Positions 15,826 through 64,000 of a DNA stretch of 64,000 nucleotides are shown piece by piece. Position numbers and translations under genes: made by a program. The stretch lies in the NCBI GenBank assembly GCA_918797485.1, contig CAKKNE010000001.1:4402001-4466000 (forward strand), written 5' to 3'. The stretch is from Pelagomonas calceolata (lineage: Eukaryota). Each line of letters begins with the position of its first letter. Positions within the stretch are counted from its first letter, which is position 1. The notes below the pieces were generated by a model. It was not told where the DNA came from. It made no database searches and saw only the letters and a list, made by a program, of their open reading frames with translations.

Positions 15826-17440
15826 CTACTTCTTCTTGGCCGCGGATTTCGTCGTCTTGCCCTCCTTCTCGGACTTGTCGACCGACTTGATGACGCCGAC
15901 CGCGACCGTCTGGCGCATGTCGCGCACGGCGAAGCGCCCGAGCGGCGGGTACTCGGCGAACGACTCGACGCACAGCGGCTTCGTCGGCTCGAGCGTGACC
16001 ATGCACGCGTCGCCCGTCTTCACGAACTTCGGGTTCTCCTCGAGCACCTTGCCTGATCGCCTGTCCATCTTCTGGTCGATGTTCTTGAACTTGCACGCGA
16101 CGTGGGCCGTGTGGCAATCGAGGACGGGCGAGTAGCCCGACGAGATCTGGCCGGGGTGGTTCATGACGATGACCTGGGCGAAGAAGGTGCTCGCGCCCTT
16201 GGGCGGGTCCTTCTTGGAGTCGCCGCACACGTTGCCGCGGCGGATGTCCTTGACCGACACGTTCTTCACGTTGAAGCCGACGTTGTCGCCCGGCACGGCC
16301 TCGGGGAGCGACTCGTGGTGCATCTCGACGGACTTGACCTCAGTCGTGATCTGGACGGGCGCGAAGGTGCAGACCATGCCCGGCTTGATGATGCCCGTCT
16401 CGACGCGGCCGACCGGCACCGTGCCGATACCGCCGATCTTGTAGACGTCCTGGAGCGGGAGGCGCAGCGGCTTGTCCGAGGGGCGCTTCGGCGGGTTGGC
16501 GTTGTCGAGCGCCTCGAGGAGGTAGGGGCCCTTGTACCACGGCATGTTCGTCGACTTGTCGATCATGTTGTCGCCCATCCAGCCCGAGATCGGCACGAAC
16601 GGGATCTTCATCGGCTTGTAGCCGACCTTCTTCAGGTAGGTCGACACCTCGGCCTTGATCTCCTTGTAGCGGCCCTCGCCGTACTTGACCGACACGTCGT
16701 CCATCTTGTTGCACGCCACGATCATCTGCTTCACGCCGAGCGTGAACGCCAGCAGCGCGTGCTCGCGCGTCTGGCCGTCCTTGGAGATACCGGCCTCGAA
16801 GCCGCCCACCGACGAGTCAATCACCAGAATGGCGATATCGGCCTGGGACGTGCCCGTGATCATGTTCTTGATGAAGTCGCGGTGGCCCGGCGCGTCGATG
16901 ACCGTGAAGTAGAACTTCGGCGACTCGAACTTCCAGAGCGCAATGTCAATCGTGATACCGCGCTCGCGCTCGGCCTTGAGGTTGTCAAGCACCCACGCGT
17001 ACTTGAACGAGGCCTTGCCGAGCTCGGCCGCCTCCTTCTCGAACTTCTCGATCGTCCGCTTGTCGATGCCGCCGCATTTGTAGATCAAGTGACCCGTCGT
17101 CGTCGACTTGCCGGCGTCGACGTGGCCGATCACCACGAGGTTGATGTGCGTCTTCTCCTTCACCTGCGATGCGGGCGCGCCGGTCGTACAACGCTCTTTC
17201 CTCACCATAGGGCTTCACGTCGCGCGTGTGTGTGTCCGGGCCTGCTGACAGTGCCCGCCGCGGCGACCGACGGTCGTTCGCTGCGGCTGGCCGCTCGTCG
17301 GTCCGTGCTAGTGGCCAAGCAAAAATCTCGCATCGCCGAAGCTCCGCACGTCGCCGTCGCAGCGCGCGGGCCCGCAACGCGCGCCTCGCTGGACGCGGAT
17401 CGGCTGGAGGATTCTCAAACGTAACGCGGGTGCGCACCAT
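15826..17440 (-). CDS. EF1A: Elongation factor 1-alpha, copy A; exon 1 = ATG (17440-17438), intron 17437-17164
   Basis: [37 protein letters not shown] mirrors copy B. An alternative ATG at 17208 is possible. Confidence 0.95.
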
Positions 17441-18032: not shown

Positions 18033-19644
18033 TCACTTCTTCTTAGCGGCGGACTTGGTCGTCTTGCCCTCCTTCTCGGACTTGTCGACCGACTTGATCA
18101 CGCCGACCGCGACCGTCTGGCGCATGTCGCGCACGGCGAAGCGTCCGAGCGGCGGGTACTCGGCGAACGACTCGACGCACAGCGGCTTCGTCGGCTCGAG
18201 CGTCACCATGCACGCGTCGCCCGTCTTCACGAACTTAGGGTTCTCCTCGAGCACCTTGCCCGAGCGGCGGTCCATCTTCTGGTCGATGTTCTTGAACTTG
18301 CACGCGACGTGGGCCGTGTGGCAATCGAGGACGGGCGAGTAGCCCGACGAGATCTGGCCGGGGTGGTTCATGACGATGACCTGGGCGAAGAAGGTGCTCG
18401 CGCCCTTGGGCGGGTCCTTCTTGGAGTCGCCGCACACGTTGCCGCGGCGGATGTCCTTGACCGACACGTTCTTCACGTTGAAGCCGACGTTGTCGCCCGG
18501 CACGGCCTCGGGGAGCGACTCGTGGTGCATCTCGACGGACTTGACCTCAGTCGTGATCTGGACGGGCGCGAAGGTGCAGACCATGCCCGGCTTGATGATG
18601 CCCGTCTCGACGCGGCCGACCGGCACCGTGCCGATACCGCCGATCTTGTAGACGTCCTGGAGCGGGAGGCGCAGCGGCTTGTCCGAGGGGCGCTTCGGCG
18701 GGTTGGCGTTGTCGAGCGCCTCGAGGAGGTAGGGGCCCTTGTACCACGGCATGTTCGTCGACTTGTCGATCATGTTGTCGCCCATCCAGCCCGAGATCGG
18801 CACGAACGGGATCTTCATCGGCTTGTAGCCGACCTTCTTCAGGTAGGTCGACACCTCGGCCTTGATCTCCTTGTAGCGGCCCTCGCCGTACTTGACCGAC
18901 ACGTCGTCCATCTTGTTGCACGCCACGATCATCTGCTTCACGCCGAGCGTGAACGCCAGCAGCGCGTGCTCGCGCGTCTGGCCGTCCTTGGAGATACCGG
19001 CCTCGAAGCCGCCCACCGACGAGTCAATCACCAGAATGGCGATATCGGCCTGGGACGTGCCCGTGATCATGTTCTTGATGAAGTCGCGGTGGCCCGGCGC
19101 GTCGATGACCGTGAAGTAGAACTTCGGCGACTCGAACTTCCAGAGCGCAATGTCAATCGTGATACCGCGCTCGCGCTCGGCCTTGAGGTTGTCAAGCACC
19201 CACGCGTACTTGAACGAGGCCTTGCCGAGCTCGGCCGCCTCCTTCTCGAACTTCTCGATCGTCCGCTTGTCGATGCCGCCGCATTTGTAGATCAAGTGAC
19301 CCGTCGTCGTCGACTTGCCGGCGTCGACGTGGCCGATCACCACGAGGTTGATGTGCGTCTTCTCCTTCACCTGCGATGCGGGGCGCGCTCGGTCTCGTAT
19401 AAATGCACCTCATGCGGGGTTTCAGGTGTTTGCGTGTTTGAGGGGTTGCTGCCGATGGCCGGTGCAATCGCTGCGGTTGCCACAACGTCCGCGCGGCCGC
19501 AAAAGGCGCCATCGCCGGCATGGGGGATATTTGGTGATTGCGCGCCACAGGCTTGCCGCGGTGCGTGATTGCTCGATCAGCGGCCGCGCGCAATATATAT
19601 TGGGAGCAGGTGTGCAAGCAGGATAGGTTGGAGAGACGCACCAT
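18033..19644 (-). CDS. EF1A: Elongation factor 1-alpha, copy B; exon 1 = ATG (19644-19642), intron 19641-19371
   Basis: Protein identical to copy A; ATG|GTGCGT..CGCAG|GTG AAG GAG. Confidence 0.95.
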
Positions 19645-48696: not shown

Positions 48697-51031
48697 ATGG
48701 CGAACCCTATTGTTTGCATCAGCGTCTTAGTACGTCAAAGTGACAGCGCTCTGCGATTTTCGTGCAACCGCGGCAATCAGCGACCGAGGAAAGGCCAGGA
48801 GGCCTGCCTCGCTGATGCTCTGCGCGCGTGACGCGCGGCGGCGCCCTGCAGCAAGCGAGCAGCCACGAGTGGAGCACGCCCGTCGCCGCCGCAGCCCTGC
48901 ACGCATCCACATAAAACATGCAAAAAATCCGCCGCGACCGCCGACCGCCAAAACGCGCGCAGGTCTTCTTCGACATGTCCATCGGCGGCCAGCCGGCGGG
49001 GCGCATCGAGATGACGCTCCGCGCGGACGTCGTCCCGAAGACGGCCGAGAACTTCCGCTGCCTCTGCACGGGCGAGAAGGGTGCCGCGGCCGCGTCCCTC
49101 TTTTCTCAAACAACTCCGTGGCGCAATGGATAGCGTATCAGACTTCGAATCTGGGGGTTGCGGGTTCGAGTCCCGTCGGAGTTGTTTCGCCGATCGCGCG
49201 GCGGCCGTTCAGTATCCGTGGCCGAGTTGGTCTTTCATCTATGATGAACCATGAAGGCGTTGGATTTAAGCCCCAATCTCTTCGGAGGCGTGGGTTCGAA
49301 CCCCACCGGATGCACACATGAACGCCGTCGACGCGACACCGGACGGACTGGAAAATCTGAAGGTCGCGGGTTCGACTCCCGCATCGGTCTCTCCGCGGAT
49401 TGGACTTTGTGCAAGATAGTGTGGCCGAGTGGTTAAGGCGGTAGACTTGAAATCTACTCCCGTAAGGGTCGCAGGATCGATTCTCACAAAATCGATGCGC
49501 GTTCGAACCCTGTCACTATCGCGCACGTTGATGATGTGGCCGAGTGGTCTAAGCTCCTGTGAGCGACCAGAGGCGCTGGTTTTAGGCACCAGTCTTCGGG
49601 CGTGGGTTCGAACCCCACCATCATCACGACAAGTCCTTTCCGCACATTTGTATCCGTGGCCGAGTTGGTCTAAGGCGTTGGATTTAAGCCCCAATCTCTT
49701 CGGAGGCGTGGGTTCGAACCCCACCGGATGCATTTGGACCGATTGGCGCAACGGTAGCGCGTCAGATTCCAGTCCTGAAGGTTACGCGTTCGAATCGCGT
49801 ATCGGTCATAGAGCGCGTGTCGACGGTACGTTCCTACGCAGGCACGGGCCGCTCGGGCAAGCCGCTCTACTTCAAGGGCTCCACCTTCCACCGCGTCATC
49901 ACGGACTTCATGTGCCAGGGCGGCGACTTCACGCGCGGCAACGGTGCCGCGGCCGCGTCCTATGCATATTTGGGGGTGTAGCTCAGTGGCAGAGCGTCCG
50001 CTTTGCATGCGGAAAGCCCAGGGTTCAAACCCCTGCTCCTCCACACACACACAACTCCGTGGCGCAATGGATAGCGTATCAGACTTCGAATCTGGGGGTT
50101 GCGGGTTCGAGTCCCGTCGGAGTTGTTGCTGCTCGACGGCGCGGAGGTGGAGCCTCGCACGCCGAGACCGGGCCGGTCACGCGCGCACGCGCAGGCACGG
50201 GCGGCGAGTCCATCTACGGCGAGAAGTTCGCCGACGAGAACTTCCAGCTCCGCCACACGGGCCCCGGCGTGCTCTCGATGGCCAACGCCGGCCCGGGCAC
50301 GAACGGCTCCCAGTACCGCGGCCGCGTCCTTTCATTCAACTCCGTGGCGCAATGGATAGCGTATCAGACTTCGAATCTGGGGGTTGCGGGTTCGAGTCCC
50401 GTCGGAGTTGTTGCTCGATAGCGTGGTGCGTCTCGACGCACCACGATCTGGACGGACTGGAAATCTGAAGGTCGCGGGTTCGACTCCCGCATCGGTCTTG
50501 CTTGCGGATTGGACTACGATAGTGTGGCCGAGTGGTTAAGGCGGTAGACTTGAAATCTACTCCCGCAAGGGTCGCAGGATCGATTCTCACAAAATCGATG
50601 CGCGTTCGAACCCTGTCACTATCGCGCACAAAGTCCTTTCTGCACATTTGTATCCGTGGCCGAGTTGGTCTTTCGTCTATGACGAGCCACGAAGGCGTTG
50701 GATTTAAGCCCCAATCTCTCCGGAGGCGTGGGTTCGAACCCCACCGGATGCATTTGATACATTTGACCGATGGGCGCCACGGTGGCGCGTCAGACTCCAG
50801 TCCGATGTCAGATTCCAGTCCTCCGAGAGAGCATACAAGGGCAATGTCGACGGTACAATCACACGCAGGTTCTTCCTCTGCACGGTCAAGACCGACTGGC
50901 TCGACGGCAAGCACGTCGTCTTCGGCTCCGTGACCAAGGGCATGGACGTCGTCAAGAAGATCGAGGCCGTCGGCTCGGGGTCCGGCGCGACGGCCAAGCC
51001 GGTCGTCATCACCGACTGCGGCCAGCTCTAA
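48697..51031 (+). CDS. Cyclophilin (PPIase), 171 aa; exons 48697-48711, 48963-49080, 49842-49943, 50195-50312, 50869-51031
   Basis: Four GT-AG introns removed give [89 protein letters not shown]. Confidence 0.95.
49112..49184 (+). tRNA. tRNA-Arg(TCG), copy 1
   Basis: Acceptor AACTCCG/CGGAGTT, anticodon arm TCAGA-CTTCGAA-TCTGG, GGTTCGAGTCC. Confidence 0.93.
49212..49314 (+). tRNA. tRNA-Leu(TAA) with 20-nt D-loop intron (49234-49253)
   Basis: Identical to the intronless copy 49650-49732 once the insert is removed. Confidence 0.88.
49345..49390 (+). tRNA. Orphan 3' half of tRNA-Trp with anti-anticodon leader, copy 1
   Basis: ATCTGAAGGTCGCGGGTTCGACTCCCGCATCGGTC, preceded by GGACTGGA. Confidence 0.6.
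49415..49521 (+). tRNA. tRNA-Ser(TGA) with 26-nt T-arm intron (49476-49501)
   Basis: Acceptor GATAGTG/CACTATC-G, GTAGA-CTTGAAA-TCTAC, long variable arm; GCAGG|TTCGAAC is restored after removing the insert. Confidence 0.88.
49530..49626 (+). tRNA. tRNA-Leu(TAG) with 19-nt D-loop intron (49552-49570)
   Basis: Acceptor GATGATG/CATCATC-A, CTGGT-TTTAGGC-ACCAG; GGTCTA|AGGC is restored after removing the insert. Confidence 0.87.
49650..49732 (+). tRNA. tRNA-Leu(TAA), intronless
   Basis: Acceptor GTATCCG/CGGATGC-A, loop TTTAAGC, variable arm, GGTTCGAACCC. Confidence 0.92.
49737..49808 (+). tRNA. tRNA-Trp(CCA), contiguous, with A31-C39 mismatch
   Basis: Acceptor GACCGAT/ATCGGTC-A, D stem GCGC/GCGC, loop TTCCAGT, T stem ACGCG/CGCGT. 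Confidence 0.8.
49972..50043 (+). tRNA. tRNA-Ala(TGC)
   Basis: G3:U70 identity pair, TCCGC-TTTGCAT-GCGGA, GGTTCAAACCC. Confidence 0.92.
50053..50125 (+). tRNA. tRNA-Arg(TCG), copy 2
   Basis: Identical to 49112-49184. Confidence 0.93.
50338..50410 (+). tRNA. tRNA-Arg(TCG), copy 3
   Basis: Identical to 49112-49184. Confidence 0.93.
50454..50498 (+). tRNA. Orphan 3' half of tRNA-Trp with anti-anticodon leader, copy 2
   Basis: Same as 49345-49390 apart from one A in the leader. Confidence 0.6.
50518..50624 (+). tRNA. tRNA-Ser(TGA) with 26-nt T-arm intron (50579-50604), copy 2
   Basis: Near-identical to 49415-49521 (one variable-loop change). Confidence 0.88.
50650..50752 (+). tRNA. tRNA-Leu(TAA) with 20-nt D-loop intron (50672-50691)
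   Basis: Same body as the other Leu(TAA) copies (one variable-loop change); intron variant TTCGTCTATGACGAGCCACG. Confidence 0.87.
50765..50821 (+). pseudogene. Degenerate 5' half of tRNA-Trp with duplicated anticodon segment
   Basis: GACCGATGGGCGCCACGGTGGCGCGTCAGACTCCAGTCC, then GTCAGATTCCAGTCC again. U8, A14 and A21 are altered and no T arm follows. Confidence 0.6.
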
Positions 51032-56031: not shown

Positions 56032-56880
56032 CTAGTTGAAGTTCAGGATCCGGCCGAACTTCTCCCCGTCGAGCGACGCGCCGCCGACGAGGCACCCGTC
56101 GATGTCCGGCATGGACATGAGCTCGTCGACGGAGTCCGGCGTGACCGACCCGCCGTACTGGATGCGCACGGCGTCGGCCGTCGCCTGATCGTACATGGAC
56201 GCGAGCTTGGCCCTCAAAAACTTGTGGACCTTTTGCGCGGTTTCGGAGGGGCACACGAGGCCCGTGCCGATGGCCCAGACGGGCTCATACGCAATAATCA
56301 TGGTCTTGACGTCCGCCGCCGACACGCCCGCTAAATCCTTGGCGAGCTGGATCGCGCAGACGGACTCGCACAAGTTGGCGTCGAACTCTTCCTTCGTCTC
56401 GCCGATGCATAGGACGGGGATCATGCCCCCTTCAATGATCTTTAATACTTTCTTGTTGATCGCGGCATCATTATCTTTGAAGAGGGTTCTACGTTCCGAA
56501 TGGCCCGCGAGGACGTACTTGACGCCGAGAGACTTAACCATCGACGCGCTGACGGCACCGGTGTAGGCGCCCTTATCTTCAAAAAAGATGGACTGGCTTC
56601 CTAAGTTTAATTTGGTGTCCTTGATGATCTCTCCGACGGGGCCGATGAACGGGTACGGGGGAAAGACGATGCCCTCGGCGGCGCTCGAGCCGGCGGCGGC
56701 CGCGACGCTCTTCGCCAGCTCGCGCGCGTCGTCTAGGCTCGTGGGATTCATCTTCCAGTTGCCGCCCGTGATCGGCTGCCTGGCTGCCAGTGCCGTCGAC
56801 GGCCGGACGGGCGCCGCGGGTGCCACCAAGGCGCTCGCCGGCATCAGGGCCAGGGACGCGATAACTGCTGCAGTTTTCAT
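56032..56880 (-). CDS. TPI: Triosephosphate isomerase, plastid-targeted
   Basis: Signal peptide + ASAL; GGNWKMN, GHSERR, AYEPVWAIGTG, YGGSV, LVGGASL. Confidence 0.97.
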   Translation of the reverse strand: MKTAAVIASLALMPASALVAPAAPVRPSTALAARQPITGGNWKMNPTSLDDARELAKSVAAAAGSSAAEGIVFPPYPFIGPVGEIIKDTKLNLGSQSIFFEDKGAYTGAVSASMVKSLGVKYVLAGHSERRTLFKDNDAAINKKVLKIIEGGMIPVLCIGETKEEFDANLCESVCAIQLAKDLAGVSAADVKTMIIAYEPVWAIGTGLVCPSETAQKVHKFLRAKLASMYDQATADAVRIQYGGSVTPDSVDELMSMPDIDGCLVGGASLDGEKFGRILNFN

Positions 56881-57233
56881 TATGGCTGCTGGCGAAATAT
56901 GAAATATAGATCCGACAGCAACTGGTGTTGCAATAGGTGCAGCAGGCGTCGCGACAGCCTATGCCTCGTCGATGCCTGTGATGATGCAGCCTTTCGAGCA
57001 TTTTGTTTCAGGGCGCTCGCGCACCGGTATGGAGAGTAGGAGTCCCTCCTCGAGACGCGTGAGAGCCATCCTCGCGGTCGCGCGTGGCGCCCCGCCGGGA
57101 CCATGCCCTCTCCACAGGCGGCAGTGAAGTTACTCGCGGGCACTCAACAGCGACGGAACAGCAAGTCTGGCAATTCCGACATTTGTATATACCACTACAC
57201 GACCATCTCAAAATATACAGCAAGTAGAACATA

Positions 57234-60200
57234 ATGGGGCGTGGTGGCCAGAGGCCCCCGAGCCCTGCCACCCTGGCTGCTATAGTGCCGCCGCTGCGCG
57301 ACGACGAGCTACAGCACTACACGGTCTTAGAAGGAGCGGCCTATGACCTACGAAAGCTCGGCGACCGCCACCCCGGCGGCGCTTTGGCACTAACCTTCGC
57401 GGGCGGCCGGGACCTGAGTCGGACGTGGGCGGGCCTCCACGGCTTCGCGGACCCGCAGAAAACTAGAGCGTGGTTGACGCATATGAGGGTCAGAGACAAG
57501 GAGCTCGAGCGACGCATCGTGCGACGAGCAAAACCAGACGCGTACAGCGAGGGCGATAATGTATCAGCACATCTCGCGCGCATCGAGCGGGAAGCATCGA
57601 GCTTCAATGAATTATCGCAGAAAGGCCGCGTGCCTCCATCAGAACCTCCGTCCCATTTAATAGAGCGCGACTTGGGCGGCGAACTCGGGACGAGGGTGCG
57701 GTGGTTGTTCCGCAGGAAAGCTCATGCATCAAAAACATCATTGAATGCAGCCACGAAGGCGCCCACGGCGTACTGGCCCTGGTTAATTGTAGTAGTGACG
57801 GCCTTCCTCGCGTCCTATGTTTCATGGTGTCGAGGGAGCTACGTCGGGTTGATAGCACTCGGCCCGCTCGGCCAGTTACTAGCCTTCGCGGTGATGCACG
57901 ACGCGTCGCACTACGCCATCTCGACCAAGCGCTGGGTCAACGTCGCGCTGGCCTACGCGGGCGTCGCCTACACGTCGCCGCACGAGTGGACGCTGCAGCA
58001 CGTCCTCGGCCACCACGTCGCGCCGAACGTGGAAGGCGAGGACCCGGACGTCGTCCACGCGCGGCGCTACATGAAAGCATTAACTGGCGTCGGGAAAGCT
58101 TTTGATGCGCTGCTCGTGTGGCTCGTGGCTCTACCGGCAGCCATAACTTTACTGGCACCGGTACGCGTGCGCAAGAACGACGGCGTCTACCCCGCCTCGA
58201 CGGTGCACGAGGGCGAACGAAGTATGATAAGGCACGTGGCGCACTTCGCCGGACGGTTAATACATGCGCTGGCATTCTTCCTCTGGCCCTTCTACGTCTA
58301 CTCACCACTCACAGCGGTAACGTGGGTCTTGATTCCGGCCTGCTCTGGTTCTTTAGTTTTTATGGCCGTGACGCAGGTGGCGCATTTACTGGAGGCCACG
58401 ATCGAGGGGCCCTCGAATGCGCCTCGATCCTGGGCCTCGCAGCAAATTGCGAATGCGTGCGATTTCGCGCCGGACTCGCCGTTAGTTGCGAGATTGACGG
58501 GCGGCCTCAATAGACAAGTGGAGCACCACCTCTTTCCGACCGTGCACCACTCGCACCTACCGGAGCTATCATCTATAGTACAAGATGTCACAAAAAGAAG
58601 AGGCCTGGACCACCACGTCCTGCCGTCCGCCACAAAAGCTCTGGGGGACCACCTCGCGTTCTTGCGGAGCCTCGAGGAGGCGCCTCCATTACCTGTCGTG
58701 TACGACGGTACTGTGGTGCACGCGCGCGCGCCGATTGCCAACGAACCTAGACATCGCTTCTCCGCGTCGCATGCCATGTGGTTATTGCCCTTGGATGATC
58801 CCGAGGCCATGCGCACCCTTGAGAAAGGATGTATCCGGTGGCGCGCCGCGGACCATCTGAGGTCGAGGCCCGGGGAGAGGAAGACACCAAAAGACGTCGC
58901 GGACGCCGTCCGATCTCTCTGTCGGGAACGAGGAGGCTCTTTAAAAAGAGTGGACTCGCCCGATAGTGTGATCAAGCACTTTCAAGGTAGTAGACGTACG
59001 GGCCTCGGTTCGGTCTCACTATTGACGATGCCTCGGACCTTCGGCTACGTCTTCAACCCCATCTCCGTCTACTACGTGAGGGATGCGAATGACAAGCCGG
59101 CCTATGTTGTTTTTGAAGTGTCGAATACGCCTTGGCTGGAAGAAACGCTCTACGTACATCCCGTTAATACAAAAGATACATATGAAGATATGAAGAAGAT
59201 GCACGTGTCGCCCTTCCAGCCCATGGGCCAAATGTACAAGTGGACGGCGCCGTTTCCTTCTGAGAATGTGTCTCTAAGGGTCGACGTGTCGAGAAATGAT
59301 AAGCCGTATTTCGTGGCCACGTTCGACGGTGCCGCGTCGACGGCGCCTTCCACAACATTAGGGAGAGTGCGTACGGCTCTCAAACTGACCCCACATACCG
59401 CCGTCTTGTTAATCCACGCGCACGCCGCCCTCTTACTAGCAAAAGGTGCAAAATTCTACCCTCATCCAAGCGGCGTGAAGACGGCCATGTCGCGATGTAT
59501 CGAGGTGATCTATCATTCGCGGTATCGCTTGTTGGCCTACTACTTGTTGAGACGGTTGCATGCGCCTCAGTACCTCATCGCGACGGCGGCCGTCAGCGTC
59601 TTACAGCGCGCCGCGTCTGTATTGTCAAGGAAAAGTTCATCGAAGAACGTGTCATCAAAGGATACCAAAGATGTACCTTTCGAGATGGTCGAGTCCCCGA
59701 AAAATAACAGTACGCCGATGCTGGCTACTGAGGAGAATTTAGCCGGTAATGCTACTGGAAAGCGCGTCGCCATCATCGGTAGTGGCATTGCGGGCAACGG
59801 TGCTGCTTACTTACTAAAAAAGCGCGGCGTCGACGTCACGGTCTTCGAGGCCTCATCAATACCGGGCGGCCACGCGCTTACGGTCGAGGTCGAGGGCCGT
59901 GCTGTCGACGTGGGCTTCCAGGTCTTCAACCTCGCGAACTACCCGAGACTGTCAAAACTGTTCGATGAACTAGGCGTGCAGCACGTCCAGAGCGACATGA
60001 GCCTGTCGTGTGAGGGCACGCAGTGCTGGTCCTCGAAGAACCCGTTAGTTGGTTGTTTGTTGTCACCAAGCAAACTCTGGCAGCGGTTGTCTTTACTCAT
60101 GGAGATCCTCAAGTTCGAGAAAAAGTGCAAACAGCTCTTGCAGAGTGAAGAAGATCCGTCTTTGTCCATACAAGAATGGTTAAACGAAAATAACTTCTCG

Positions 60201-63200
60201 GAAAGGCTAGCTCGAGAATACTGCGAGCCCATGGTCGGGGCCATCTGGTCGCGTACGCAGGGCGATGTGTTAGATGAGTTTCCGATCTTGGGCGTGGCCC
60301 AGTTTCTGGCGAACCACTACATGCTCGACCGGTCGCGGCCGGCGTGGCGAACGCCGCGGTTAAGATCGCAGGACTACGTTACGAAGTTAGTCGAGAAGGT
60401 CGGGCGGGACGCGTATCGACTATCATCGAGGGTGCGCGCTGTACATAAGGATCGCTCCAATAAGTGGTTAATAGAGTCCGATTCACCGACGGCCCTGGCC
60501 TTCGACGCTGTTATACTCGCGTGCGACGCGCCGACGGCTTCTACCATACTAGGGGACCAGGCGCCGGACCTACTCAAGCAGCTCAAGGTAACGCAAAATG
60601 ATGTCTGTGTCCACCGCGACGCGTCGCTCATGCCTTCTGACAGAAACGCGTGGGCGGCCTGGAACTGCCGGCCGAACGGCGTGTTGACCTACTGGGCGAA
60701 TGTGCTACAGCCCGGTGTCGATGATCAGGACCTGTTTATTACCTTGAATGGATCTACGCCAGCCCCCTTATGGCGGCGGACGTTACAACATCCCGTGCTC
60801 GATGCGGCGTCGCAGAAATGGAGGGAGTCATTACCATCACTCCAGGGGAACGAGGGTATTTATTTTGCCGGCGCCTGGTGCGGCTTCGGCTTCCACGAGG
60901 ACGGCCTCAAATCGGCCTACGATGCTGTGGATGCTTTGTGTGGTACGACGACCCCTATCGCTCGATCACCATTTGTAGCCAGTTCATCCTTGACGAAGAC
61001 GGCTTTAAGATGTGTCTGTCGCGGCGCTCGAGCGCTAGCAGCAAGGACTGCTGATAAAACGAGACCGCGGCCGGAGATCGTCCTGACTTTACCGGAAGGT
61101 CTCGACTTAATAGCGGCCGACGCCGTCTCTAGTAAAGAGAGAGTTGAGGTAAGAATCCTAGACGGACGAGCGGCCTGGCGGTTATTAGCTGATCCGTCGA
61201 TGGGGCTGGCCGAGGGGTACATGGAGGGGAGCCTCGACCTGAAGCCGTCTATTCGAGCTGTGTTACATGCCGCCCTGAAATGTAAAAATAAGGATGCGGG
61301 CGATAGTCCCCAGAACGTGGCGTCGCGATCACTCCTCACAGTCGGCAAGCGGTTCACCGACGTCATCCAACACGCGTTCAACGCCAATACTAAGTCAGGT
61401 AGCTTGAAGAACATCGCGGCGCACTATGATTTGTCCAATGCCTTTTATGAGCTGTGGTTGGATGAAACCCTCACCTACTCCTCAGCTTTGTATGATGACC
61501 ACGAGCCCTACTTACGAAGGGAAGGTTTACTGGTAGATGACGGTCGGAGAGGTACTGTGGACGAAGACGCATCAGACGACGTGTTAGCGGCAGCGCAACG
61601 TAGGAAACTAGATTCATTACTGGACAAGGCCGGCGTGCGCGATGGTGATAGAATACTAGAGATCGGGTGCGGCTGGGGTAGTCTAGCGTTGCGGTGTACG
61701 GAACGCTTCCCGAACTGTGAGTACGTGGCCATCACTATTTCCCGGGAACAGTTGAACGAAGCCTCGCAACGGTTGGAAGGTAAGAGCAATGCCAGGGTCG
61801 TCTTCTGCGACTATCGCGACGCGCGAGACAAGCTGGGCTTGTTCGATCGCGTGCTGTCCTGTGAGATGATCGAGGCCGTCGGCCACGCCTTTTTACCGTC
61901 CTATTTCTCGGCGATCCACGCCTGTCTGAAGGGCGGTGGGTCGGCCTCCCTACAGATCATCACGGTGCCCGACGAACGGTACGCTTCATATATCAAGGGT
62001 AGCGATTTCATCCGGAAGCACGTCTTTCCTGGTTCTTCATTGGTATGTCTGGAAGCCGTAAAAAAAGCCCTGCCGAAGCTAGGCTCTTTAGCTTTAAGGT
62101 TGGACGACGCGGCTACTTTAAGCATGGGCGTATCTTATGCTCGTACCTTACGGGCGTGGCGCGTCCGTTTCGACGCTGTCGAAGACCAGGTATCTAAGCT
62201 CGGTTTTGATGACGTCTTCGTCAGGAAGTGGAGGTATTATCTGGACTACTGCGAGGCGGGCTTCGCGTGTGGTCATATCGACGTGAAGCAGATACGACTC
62301 GAGAAGACGGACGAAAGCCTTGCGAGAGAAGCGACGGAGGGCGCCCATGGTTCGAAACCCATCTCGGTGAAGGATATGACTATCAAGGCCGTGAAGGGCG
62401 TGGCCACTACGGCCTTTGAGCGAGGCTTACTGCCGGATTTCGTGACGCGGTATGGGATAAGACAGCTCTCGGCGCAGCAACTGAGGCACTGCGACGACGC
62501 CGGTCGCGCAGCCAACAACGGCGAGGCGGGCTTGGCTGGTAGTCAAGAGAAGCTCCGGGAGACCATCCAGGCTTTGTTGGAAGCGCCGGTAGCAGTATGT
62601 ACGTCCGAGGCGAACGAGCAGCACTACGAAGTCGACGCGCGCTTCTACGGGCTGTGTCTGGGGCCCCATAGGAAGTACTCTGCTTGTTTATATGAAGGGG
62701 CGGAGCCGAAGTGGCCCGGGAACAAACTGCAAAAAGACGCGGCTCGGTTACTGCCAAAGGCGGAAAAGGATTCATTAGATCAAGTCGCGGCTCGCGGCGA
62801 CATCACGCAGGCCACGAAAGCTATCTTAGATTGCGGCTGCGGCTGGGGGTCGGCCTCGCTGTACTTGGCGGATAGATTCCGGAACGCCCAGGTGGTAGGT
62901 GTCTCGAATTCTCATTCCCAGAGAAGGTACATCATGGGCCAGGCTCAAGAACGAGGATTGACGAACCTGCAGATTGTGACACTGGATTTGTCGAAGGAGC
63001 CTCTCACAAAAGCCTTGGACGCGTTGCAGAGTCGACTGCCGGGCCAGTATTTCGAGCGCGGCGTCTCGATAGAGATGTTCGAGCACATGAAGAATTATAA
63101 GGCATTATTTGAGAAGATCACGGCGGTACTACAGGACCAGGGCCGCTTCTTCGTGCACGTGTTCTGCCACCGGCAGTACGCGTACCACTTCGTGGCCAAG

Positions 63201-63542
63201 TCCGACGCGGACTGGATGGCCAAGTACTTCTTCGCGGGCGGTACCATGCCTTCGGCCGATTTATTTGTTCATTTTGCGGCGCGGAAAGATGCGCCCGTCG
63301 CGCTCGTGGACCACTGGCGGAACAGCGGCGTGCATTACGCGTTGACGGCGGAAGGCTGGCTCCAGAACATGGACGCCAACGCGGCGGAAGTCAGAGAGAT
63401 ATTAAAGGAGGCCTACCCTGAAAATGAGACGGAGCTCTGGTTCCACCGCTGGCGCGCCTTTTACCTCGCGTGCGTCGAACTCTTCGGCTACGACGGCGGC
63501 CAGGAGTGGTGCATCGGGCACTACCTCTTCGAGAAGCGGTGA
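57234..63542 (+). CDS. 2102-aa six-domain fatty-acid-modifying fusion: cyt b5, desaturase, DUF1365, FAD oxidoreductase, CFA-type methyltransferase, second SAM methyltransferase
   Basis: HPGG; HDASH / HVLGHH / QVEHHLFP; YDGTVVHAR..FGYVFNPIS..KKMHVSPF; IIGSGIAG..GAWCGFGFHEDG; NIAAHYDLSN..LEIGCGWG..WRYYLDYCEAGF; ANEQHYEV..LDCGCGWG..SIEMFEHMKNY..ELFGYDGGQEW. Confidence 0.93.
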   Translation: MGRGGQRPPSPATLAAIVPPLRDDELQHYTVLEGAAYDLRKLGDRHPGGALALTFAGGRDLSRTWAGLHGFADPQKTRAWLTHMRVRDKELERRIVRRAKPDAYSEGDNVSAHLARIEREASSFNELSQKGRVPPSEPPSHLIERDLGGELGTRVRWLFRRKAHASKTSLNAATKAPTAYWPWLIVVVTAFLASYVSWCRGSYVGLIALGPLGQLLAFAVMHDASHYAISTKRWVNVALAYAGVAYTSPHEWTLQHVLGHHVAPNVEGEDPDVVHARRYMKALTGVGKAFDALLVWLVALPAAITLLAPVRVRKNDGVYPASTVHEGERSMIRHVAHFAGRLIHALAFFLWPFYVYSPLTAVTWVLIPACSGSLVFMAVTQVAHLLEATIEGPSNAPRSWASQQIANACDFAPDSPLVARLTGGLNRQVEHHLFPTVHHSHLPELSSIVQDVTKRRGLDHHVLPSATKALGDHLAFLRSLEEAPPLPVVYDGTVVHARAPIANEPRHRFSASHAMWLLPLDDPEAMRTLEKGCIRWRAADHLRSRPGERKTPKDVADAVRSLCRERGGSLKRVDSPDSVIKHFQGSRRTGLGSVSLLTMPRTFGYVFNPISVYYVRDANDKPAYVVFEVSNTPWLEETLYVHPVNTKDTYEDMKKMHVSPFQPMGQMYKWTAPFPSENVSLRVDVSRNDKPYFVATFDGAASTAPSTTLGRVRTALKLTPHTAVLLIHAHAALLLAKGAKFYPHPSGVKTAMSRCIEVIYHSRYRLLAYYLLRRLHAPQYLIATAAVSVLQRAASVLSRKSSSKNVSSKDTKDVPFEMVESPKNNSTPMLATEENLAGNATGKRVAIIGSGIAGNGAAYLLKKRGVDVTVFEASSIPGGHALTVEVEGRAVDVGFQVFNLANYPRLSKLFDELGVQHVQSDMSLSCEGTQCWSSKNPLVGCLLSPSKLWQRLSLLMEILKFEKKCKQLLQSEEDPSLSIQEWLNENNFSERLAREYCEPMVGAIWSRTQGDVLDEFPILGVAQFLANHYMLDRSRPAWRTPRLRSQDYVTKLVEKVGRDAYRLSSRVRAVHKDRSNKWLIESDSPTALAFDAVILACDAPTASTILGDQAPDLLKQLKVTQNDVCVHRDASLMPSDRNAWAAWNCRPNGVLTYWANVLQPGVDDQDLFITLNGSTPAPLWRRTLQHPVLDAASQKWRESLPSLQGNEGIYFAGAWCGFGFHEDGLKSAYDAVDALCGTTTPIARSPFVASSSLTKTALRCVCRGARALAARTADKTRPRPEIVLTLPEGLDLIAADAVSSKERVEVRILDGRAAWRLLADPSMGLAEGYMEGSLDLKPSIRAVLHAALKCKNKDAGDSPQNVASRSLLTVGKRFTDVIQHAFNANTKSGSLKNIAAHYDLSNAFYELWLDETLTYSSALYDDHEPYLRREGLLVDDGRRGTVDEDASDDVLAAAQRRKLDSLLDKAGVRDGDRILEIGCGWGSLALRCTERFPNCEYVAITISREQLNEASQRLEGKSNARVVFCDYRDARDKLGLFDRVLSCEMIEAVGHAFLPSYFSAIHACLKGGGSASLQIITVPDERYASYIKGSDFIRKHVFPGSSLVCLEAVKKALPKLGSLALRLDDAATLSMGVSYARTLRAWRVRFDAVEDQVSKLGFDDVFVRKWRYYLDYCEAGFACGHIDVKQIRLEKTDESLAREATEGAHGSKPISVKDMTIKAVKGVATTAFERGLLPDFVTRYGIRQLSAQQLRHCDDAGRAANNGEAGLAGSQEKLRETIQALLEAPVAVCTSEANEQHYEVDARFYGLCLGPHRKYSACLYEGAEPKWPGNKLQKDAARLLPKAEKDSLDQVAARGDITQATKAILDCGCGWGSASLYLADRFRNAQVVGVSNSHSQRRYIMGQAQERGLTNLQIVTLDLSKEPLTKALDALQSRLPGQYFERGVSIEMFEHMKNYKALFEKITAVLQDQGRFFVHVFCHRQYAYHFVAKSDADWMAKYFFAGGTMPSADLFVHFAARKDAPVALVDHWRNSGVHYALTAEGWLQNMDANAAEVREILKEAYPENETELWFHRWRAFYLACVELFGYDGGQEWCIGHYLFEKR

Positions 63543-64000
63543 CGCTTTTTTCTCGTGGGGTCTAAGTTTACATATTGTACTTCTTGTCGCGGCGCGCGTG
63601 ACCAACGAAAAACGGAGAACTGCGTTCCGCCGACCTCACGAAGCTTCCGTAGACGGCCTGGGACGTCCGGAGACCTCGCGATAGCCTCGTGATAGTGTGC
63701 GGGATTTAATTGTTTGATTTGACCCGAGGGCCGAGACTGCCGTGACCGCGCTGTGTGCCGTGACCGCGGCGCGCATTTGGAATTGATTCTAATCAGGGCC
63801 ACCGCGCACCTGTCCGCACCTCACGCAGCCCGCGTGCGGCATCGCTGTCGCACCTTCTGGGCGCTGTGATCCTCGGAGCCCCAGAGCCCAGTTTGACCTA
63901 CAAACTGCTGCGTATTTGCAACGAGCAGGCATCGCGCAACACGAGCGCAGCCACATTCACAATGCGGCGCGTCGCCCCCAATTACGCCTTCCTGGCAGCC

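Follow-up and report, generated by a model that had tools for sequence, protein, structure and literature searches.

A five-domain fusion gene of Pelagomonas calceolata as a candidate synthase for methylated furan fatty acids

We analyzed a stretch of 64,000 nucleotides of Pelagomonas calceolata (assembly GCA_918797485.1, contig CAKKNE010000001.1, positions 4,402,001 to 4,466,000 of the forward strand), hereafter called the window, in which all coordinates are given. It contains an uninterrupted, intron-free open reading frame (ORF) of 2102 aa (P0001; 57234..63542, + strand) with zero internal stops. The encoded protein joins a cytochrome b5-linked desaturase (domain 1), a DUF1365 domain (domain 2), a flavin adenine dinucleotide (FAD) oxidoreductase (domain 3), and two S-adenosylmethionine (SAM) methyltransferases (domains 4 and 5), and an identical protein is present in NCBI, UniRef, and MMETSP. 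The gene corresponds to a single unspliced transcript unit of ~6.4 kb (57133..63555, + strand), delimited by the contig X5 and by stranded polyA reads. X5 (6,423 nt) aligns to 57133-63555 with no mismatches and no gaps. In its source run, which is probably RNA (a status assigned by an automated guess), the coverage is nil immediately beyond this interval. The stranded polyA reads of three runs cover between 27 and 29 out of 30 bins, with zero joints and a single 3′ pile-up. Expression is low (2-9 reads per kb per million), and the read depth climbs steeply in the 5′ to 3′ direction, from about 1-10 in the 5′ half to 80 at the 3′ end (run X21). An earlier interpretation of the letters alone (the sequence-only reading) had described one uninterrupted ORF of 2102 aa, taken as a single gene; both points hold, with one unspliced unit found instead of separate transcripts. 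The five-domain fusion is real, expressed, and conserved, and the motifs are intact in all five domains.

The domain scan located all five domains where the sequence-only reading had placed them. The N-terminal part starts with a cytochrome b5-like domain (aa 27-84; 57312..57485, + strand) containing an HPGG motif at aa 46. Its Pfam match (E 9e-4) lies under the curated Cyt-b5 cut-off, with clearer matches in the orthologues P0051 and P0052. A front-end-type membrane desaturase follows (aa 204-458; 57843..58607, + strand; Pfam FA_desaturase, E 2e-30), with histidine boxes at aa 222, 255, and 428, the third of which contains a glutamine. The UfaO-like DUF1365 domain (aa 489-746; 58698..59471, + strand; Pfam E 4e-48) scores 164 bits against a cut-off of 25, and the UfaD-like FAD oxidoreductase (aa 844-1235; 59763..60938, + strand; Pfam Amino_oxidase/NAD_binding_8, E 2e-22) carries its GxGxxG motif at aa 849. 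Pfam CMAS matches the protein in two stretches. The first belongs to a methyltransferase of the UfaM/plant cyclopropane synthase (CPS) type (aa 1300-1696; 61131..62321, + strand), assigned by the Pfam match, by a match to UfaM of Cereibacter johrii and by its position in a tree. The second methyltransferase, similar to coclaurine N-methyltransferase (CNMT) and FufM, forms the C-terminus (aa 1729-2102; 62418..63539, + strand); here the CMAS stretch (aa 1791-2101) matches the coclaurine N-methyltransferase structure 6gkv in PDB (E 8e-49), in line with the CNMT-like domain that had been read from the letters. The domains are separated by low-complexity linkers. We abbreviate their order as Des-O-D-M-F (desaturase, DUF1365, FAD domain, methylase, second methylase).

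The references for domains 2 to 4 come from the bacterial furan fatty acid pathway, in which UfaM, UfaD, and UfaO are RSP2144, RSP1091, and RSP1090 in Cereibacter sphaeroides and RPA2569-2571 in Rhodopseudomonas palustris, while FufM is RPA0924 (PMC7380195). The ufaD primer of Lemke 2020 (PMC7380195) matched three genomes, and the C. johrii locus supplied the UfaD and UfaO references. As UfaM reference we used the sole strong Cfa-like gene of C. johrii, whose start fits the ufaM primer. Domain 2 shares 33% identity with UfaO over 161 aa (E 4e-20) and keeps 19 of the 24 residues that are invariant among 23 bacterial DUF1365 sequences. Domain 3 is 35% identical to UfaD over 420 aa (E 1e-64), with 55 out of 65 residues retained that are invariant among 24 bacterial sequences, and domain 4 is 36% identical to UfaM over 387 aa (E 6e-71).

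Domain 4 was placed in a quick maximum likelihood tree (IQ-TREE) of 83 rows, made without plant or mycobacterial rows. Its clade (SH-aLRT 100) takes in UfaM and all 21 cluster-linked methylases. Escherichia coli Cfa sits outside, as do 22 of the 23 Cfa-like genes without such linkage; the genome that encodes the 23rd has a DUF1365 locus without a methylase. Among 17 diagnostic columns, domain 4 is UfaM-type in 13 and Cfa-type in two. The bicarbonate site of E. coli Cfa consists of C139, E239, H266, I268, and Y317 (PMC3132707). Domain 4 keeps E239, I268, and Y317, and has a serine for C139 and a glutamine for H266; the combination S139/A240/Q266 (E. coli numbering) is common to the UfaM-type clade. 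An identity as E. coli-type Cfa was rejected, with C139 and H266 replaced and a position outside the Cfa clade. Direct comparison and trees thus support the membership of domains 2, 3, and 4 in the UfaO, UfaD, and UfaM families, as the sequence-only reading had assigned them.

The comparison of domain 5 with FufM is indirect, since scanning with primers for the ufa locus of R. palustris gave no match. In four plasmid clusters, the second methylase is 40-42% identical to domain 5, which shares just 25% identity with UfaM; three of these four clusters also encode FAD and DUF1365 genes. The internal and C-terminal residues encoded by the fufM primers fit the domain-5 family and none of 65 UfaM/Cfa-type rows. 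The best Arabidopsis match of FufM is AT4G33110 (PMC10940516). Domain 5 would thus, indirectly, fit the FufM family. Its likeness to the alkaloid N-methyltransferase CNMT is one of homology only.

Domain 1 shows the hallmarks of front-end desaturases, namely HPGG, three histidine boxes and a glutamine in the third (PMC3423564), and all of HPGG and the three boxes are kept in 19 out of 22 five-domain sequences. In the domain 1 tree, the desaturases that belong to fusions fall into a single clade (support 99), and no characterized desaturases were found among the domain 1 matches. One stand-alone relative is automatically named delta11 desaturase; it is placed outside the fused clade, and a delta-11 identity of domain 1 was not confirmed. 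Within this b5-desaturase subfamily, the Atlas clusters closest to domain 1 have many members from ciliates and giant viruses, and fusions to an elongase or TLC domain are seen in some relatives of domain 1.

DUF1365 is present in 32 of 61 alphaproteobacterial genomes. In the 20 loci examined out of these 32, a FAD gene adjoins DUF1365 in every case; 17 loci also contain a UfaM-type gene (domain 4), and one contains a domain-5-type gene. From metagenomes, we took the best 80 of 592 loci, picked by methylase motifs, and 40 of these were at least 10 kb long. All four families occur together in 23 of the 40, and 18 of the 23 complete loci additionally encode a delta-9-family desaturase, although some of these matches are weak. 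Because metagenome loci often hold all four families and a desaturase, a common type of bacterial cluster offers a parallel to the five activities of the algal protein. An example is the Acinetobacter plasmid NZ_CP053948, with a desaturase, a FAD oxidoreductase, DUF1365, a cfa-like gene, DUF1295, and a second methylase. Such clusters resemble the fusion in bringing together five activities, a membrane desaturase included. They differ from it in that the genes are separate, DUF1295 has no counterpart in the fusion, and the delta-9-family desaturase gives no BLAST match to domain 1. No fused ORFs were found among the 80 metagenome loci, and the commonest bacterial gene order differs from that of the fusion, where O precedes D. 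Two-domain bacterial proteins with a FAD oxidoreductase and DUF1365 in one chain, mostly from Actinomycetota, occur in ESM Atlas clusters. They have only these two domains, and the likeness is one of features, without alignment.

The five-domain order was found in at least 22 sequences, which form at least eight clusters at 90% identity and range down to 40% identity. These counts come from long-protein searches that each scored 8,000 candidates in a length range and do not establish an absence from diatoms, haptophytes, or brown algae. Eight marine metatranscriptome runs of two studies contain 0.29-0.36 of the query words and were left out of the evidence. Carriers include Aureococcus (with an imperfect gene model), Aureoumbra, Pelagophyceae sp., and the dinoflagellate Polarella glacialis. 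Reduced forms also exist: the fusions of Durusdinium and Effrenium are without DUF1365 and that of Symbiodinium without both DUF1365 and domain 5. Among the matches listed, four sequences have the order Des-D-M-F and nine the order Des-D-M, and halves consisting of desaturase and DUF1365 occur as well. The Symbiodiniaceae versions P0276, P0277, P0278, and P0068 keep the desaturase and lack a fused DUF1365; no search for a free DUF1365 gene was made. A further protein, P0058, combines desaturase, DUF1365, and CRAL/TRIO. Over 574 aa it shares 98.8% identity with the beginning of the Aureococcus model P0048. P0058 could be a paralogue that carries a lipid-binding domain; otherwise, the match indicates that the Aureococcus model was joined wrongly. 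The Chlamydomonas genes co-induced with CFA1, CFA2, and DUF1365 include a CRAL/TRIO gene (PMC4067076).

In each domain tree, a single group holds the fused copies and divides into a pelagophyte and a dinoflagellate branch, and the branching order within the pelagophytes is consistent across all five. The trees are unrooted, carry no clade test and include no plants, diatoms, or haptophytes; those of DUF1365, domain 3, and domain 5 were made with FastTree. Two other FAD-methylase fusions group with domains 3 and 4, and a stand-alone gene, whose eukaryotic contig also encodes COG6, groups with domain 5. The neighbors of all three domains are other fusions or eukaryotic sequences and lie apart from the bacteria sampled. 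The single-domain sequences P0174 and P0194, whose eukaryotic label had no basis and which fall among bacteria in the DUF1365 tree, were disregarded. Sequence comparison thereby favors a single old fusion, probably assembled inside a eukaryote, over the capture of an operon. The gene would have been assembled once, around an older FAD-methylase fusion that is also found in plants. Its presence in both pelagophytes and dinoflagellates would then likely stem from a transfer between algae, in either direction. Such a transfer is plausible because gene sharing between the two groups is reported to be common (bioRxiv 10.1101/2024.10.30.620910). Of the sequence-only reading, the Ufa/FufM interpretation stands, directly for UfaM, UfaD, and UfaO and indirectly for FufM. 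A bacterial operon as its direct or recent source finds no support, given the different gene order, the lack of fused ORFs among the 80 metagenome loci and the position of domains 3-5.

The codon usage had also been described as less GC-biased than that of the neighboring genes, which is the case: the GC content at synonymous third codon positions (GC3s) is 0.67, against a median of 0.83 for 31 other ORFs of at least about 250 aa, three of which are equally low. A recent bacterial transfer was rejected as its cause in view of the consistent pelagophyte branching order; as the gene is old within the pelagophytes, its low GC3 is no pointer to recent transfer. Low expression may be the cause, or the gene may lie at the border of a chromosomal region of low GC content, such as has been described in Pelagomonas (PMC9481584). 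The GC content of the window drops to 0.54-0.61 at its right end (57001-64000), compared to about 0.65 elsewhere, which could reflect the codon use of the fusion gene itself or the edge of a low-GC region.

With the bacterial Ufa/FufM set, the fusion shares four enzyme families, FufM by indirect evidence, but the bacterial enzymes are separate proteins, whereas the algal version is one eukaryotic polypeptide with an added b5-fused desaturase. Plants have fusions of a FAD domain with a methyltransferase, such as the Sterculia and cotton CPS and Arabidopsis AT3G23510 (UFAM1/UFAD1) (PMC3132707, PMC10940516, PMC13247531). In the layout of plant CPS, the FAD oxidase is fused N-terminally to a methylase with H266Q, and the adjacent domains 3 and 4 show this layout with Q266 and S139, so that the joined D-M unit and both substitutions (H266Q and C139S) are common to the plant and algal proteins. 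The plant fusions join these two domains only. The cotton ones make cyclopropane acids, and the furan role of the Arabidopsis protein is presented as a hypothesis, in which separate genes, AT1G30130 (UFAO1) and AT4G33110 (LIME1/FUFM1), complete a set proposed for furan synthesis on lipid droplets. The plant furan homologues are still termed putative in a 2026 publication (PMC13247531).

The fusion probably carries out the entire synthesis of methylated furan fatty acids in one protein. Following the bacterial pathway (PMC7380195), the UfaM-like domain would methylate an unsaturated acyl chain with SAM and shift the double bond, and the UfaD-like FAD domain would yield a methylated conjugated diene. 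The UfaO-like DUF1365 domain would then insert O2 and close the furan ring, to which the FufM-like C-terminal methylase would add a second methyl group. UfaM, UfaD, and UfaO are enough for furan synthesis in two bacteria (PMC7380195). More weakly, the b5-desaturase may serve as membrane anchor through its hydrophobic segments and as source of the unsaturated substrate, filling the slot that is held in many bacterial clusters by an unrelated delta-9-family desaturase. The substrates would be membrane lipids, and the product would act as a scavenger of radicals and singlet oxygen. In Chlamydomonas, singlet oxygen co-induces CFA1, the CNMT-like CFA2, and a DUF1365 gene (PMC4067076). The natural fusion of four families is independent Rosetta-stone evidence for one joint pathway in eukaryotes. 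More tentatively, and as a possibility rather than a probability, we propose that one polypeptide takes an ordinary membrane acyl chain to a dimethyl furan acid, makes its own substrate through an uncharacterized desaturase subfamily and has moved between pelagophytes and dinoflagellates.

Several observations weigh against a furan fatty acid synthase. Cotton CPS1 and CPS2, proven cyclopropane synthases with the FAD-methylase layout, carry H266Q and C139S (PMC3132707), so the signature of domain 4 cannot separate methylation from cyclopropanation and was rejected as proof of the former. The similarity to UfaO is modest, with five of the 24 bacterial invariant residues altered, and the ring-forming DUF1365 is missing from the Durusdinium, Effrenium, and Symbiodinium fusions (a separate gene was not searched for). 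In reviews, linoleic acid is named as the precursor of furan acids in plants and algae (PMC11945187, PMC10608786), in contrast to vaccenate in bacteria, so the bacterial pathway does not fix the substrate or the role of the desaturase. Finally, no reports of furan fatty acids from pelagophytes or Polarella were found in the open literature; such acids are reported from Isochrysis and Phaeodactylum, taxa other than the carriers of the fusion gene.

The cotton enzymes give substance to the reading that the products of the fusion are cyclopropane or cyclopropene fatty acids, like those of the Sterculia and cotton enzymes, and that the ring is a target of the desaturase or FAD domain: domains 3 and 4 have the layout of these plant enzymes, and both CPS1 and CPS2, with H266Q and C139S, make cyclopropane acids in yeast (PMC3132707). 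The best NCBIfam matches are likewise cyclopropane synthase models, all far under their cut-offs. This reading, however, leaves DUF1365 and the second methylase without a role, and domain 4 lies outside the clade of E. coli Cfa. GhCPS3 and an operon-linked Agrobacterium enzyme, moreover, produced no cyclopropane acid (PMC3132707), and we consider a cyclopropane product unlikely. We judge a different lipid similarly doubtful, be it a methyl-branched conjugated diene without ring, a furan acid to which the front-end desaturase has added a double bond, or a non-fatty-acid acceptor methylated by the CNMT-like domain. Such products would suit the dinoflagellate forms that keep the desaturase and have lost DUF1365 (the four Des-D-M-F sequences) or both DUF1365 and domain 5 (the nine Des-D-M sequences). 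The HDASH box of domain 1 is typical of many delta-5 front-end enzymes (PMC3423564), and the nearest solved structures to domain 5 are alkaloid N-methyltransferases. The protein in the window nevertheless retains DUF1365 with most of its invariant residues, and its domain 5 is closest to the methylases of bacterial ufa clusters.

Two further explanations concern the polypeptide instead of the product. The fusion might be a co-expression device, with a polypeptide that is cut or a shorter transcript that supplies the C-terminal methylases, and no unit acting as a megaenzyme. The steep rise in depth toward the 3′ end, the low-complexity linkers and the existence of split and reduced forms are in line with this. 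Yet polyA selection itself gives a rising gradient, the reads show one 3′ pile-up and no joints, one contig spans the whole gene, and full-length forms persist in at least eight clusters, so that we regard such a device as less likely than either alternative product. An artefact of assembly or annotation that joins neighboring genes is highly improbable. The imperfect Aureococcus model P0048 illustrates that such models can err, but the frame is open, the transcript contig and the MMETSP protein match exactly, and the identical order recurs in transcript-derived proteins of Polarella and Aureoumbra.

We found no description of the five-domain fusion in the open PMC and bioRxiv text (subscription literature was not covered), while the pathway families are already known. 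The database names of its members follow single domains (ufaA1, coclaurine N-methyltransferase, amine oxidase), and the main text of the pelagophyte papers examined makes no mention of furan or cyclopropane. In the literature examined, proven furan fatty acid genes are restricted to two alphaproteobacteria (PMC7380195) and no algal gene assigned to furan fatty acids was found. The fusion adds the desaturase as a candidate fifth enzyme, and as a single intron-free gene it makes the question of algal furan synthesis testable. It would also mark an oxidative-stress trait common to pelagophytes and dinoflagellates, including coral symbionts, the latter without the fused ring-forming domain. Fish, in which furan fatty acids build up, are said to obtain these antioxidants from plants and algae (PMC11945187). 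If the furan reading is true, abundant ocean picoalgae would be a genetic source of the furan acids of the marine food web, and the gene would provide a one-gene cassette for furan acid production.

Elsewhere in the window, a gene for an N-terminally extended triosephosphate isomerase (56032-56880, - strand) stands head-to-head with the fusion gene, with 353 bp between them. Six tRNA genes on the + strand (49111-50411), three of them tRNA-Arg(TCG), lie within repeated pieces. Two adjacent ORFs with high GC3 on the - strand (15826-17208 and 18033-19070) resemble, judging from their motifs, what we take to be elongation factor 1-alpha.

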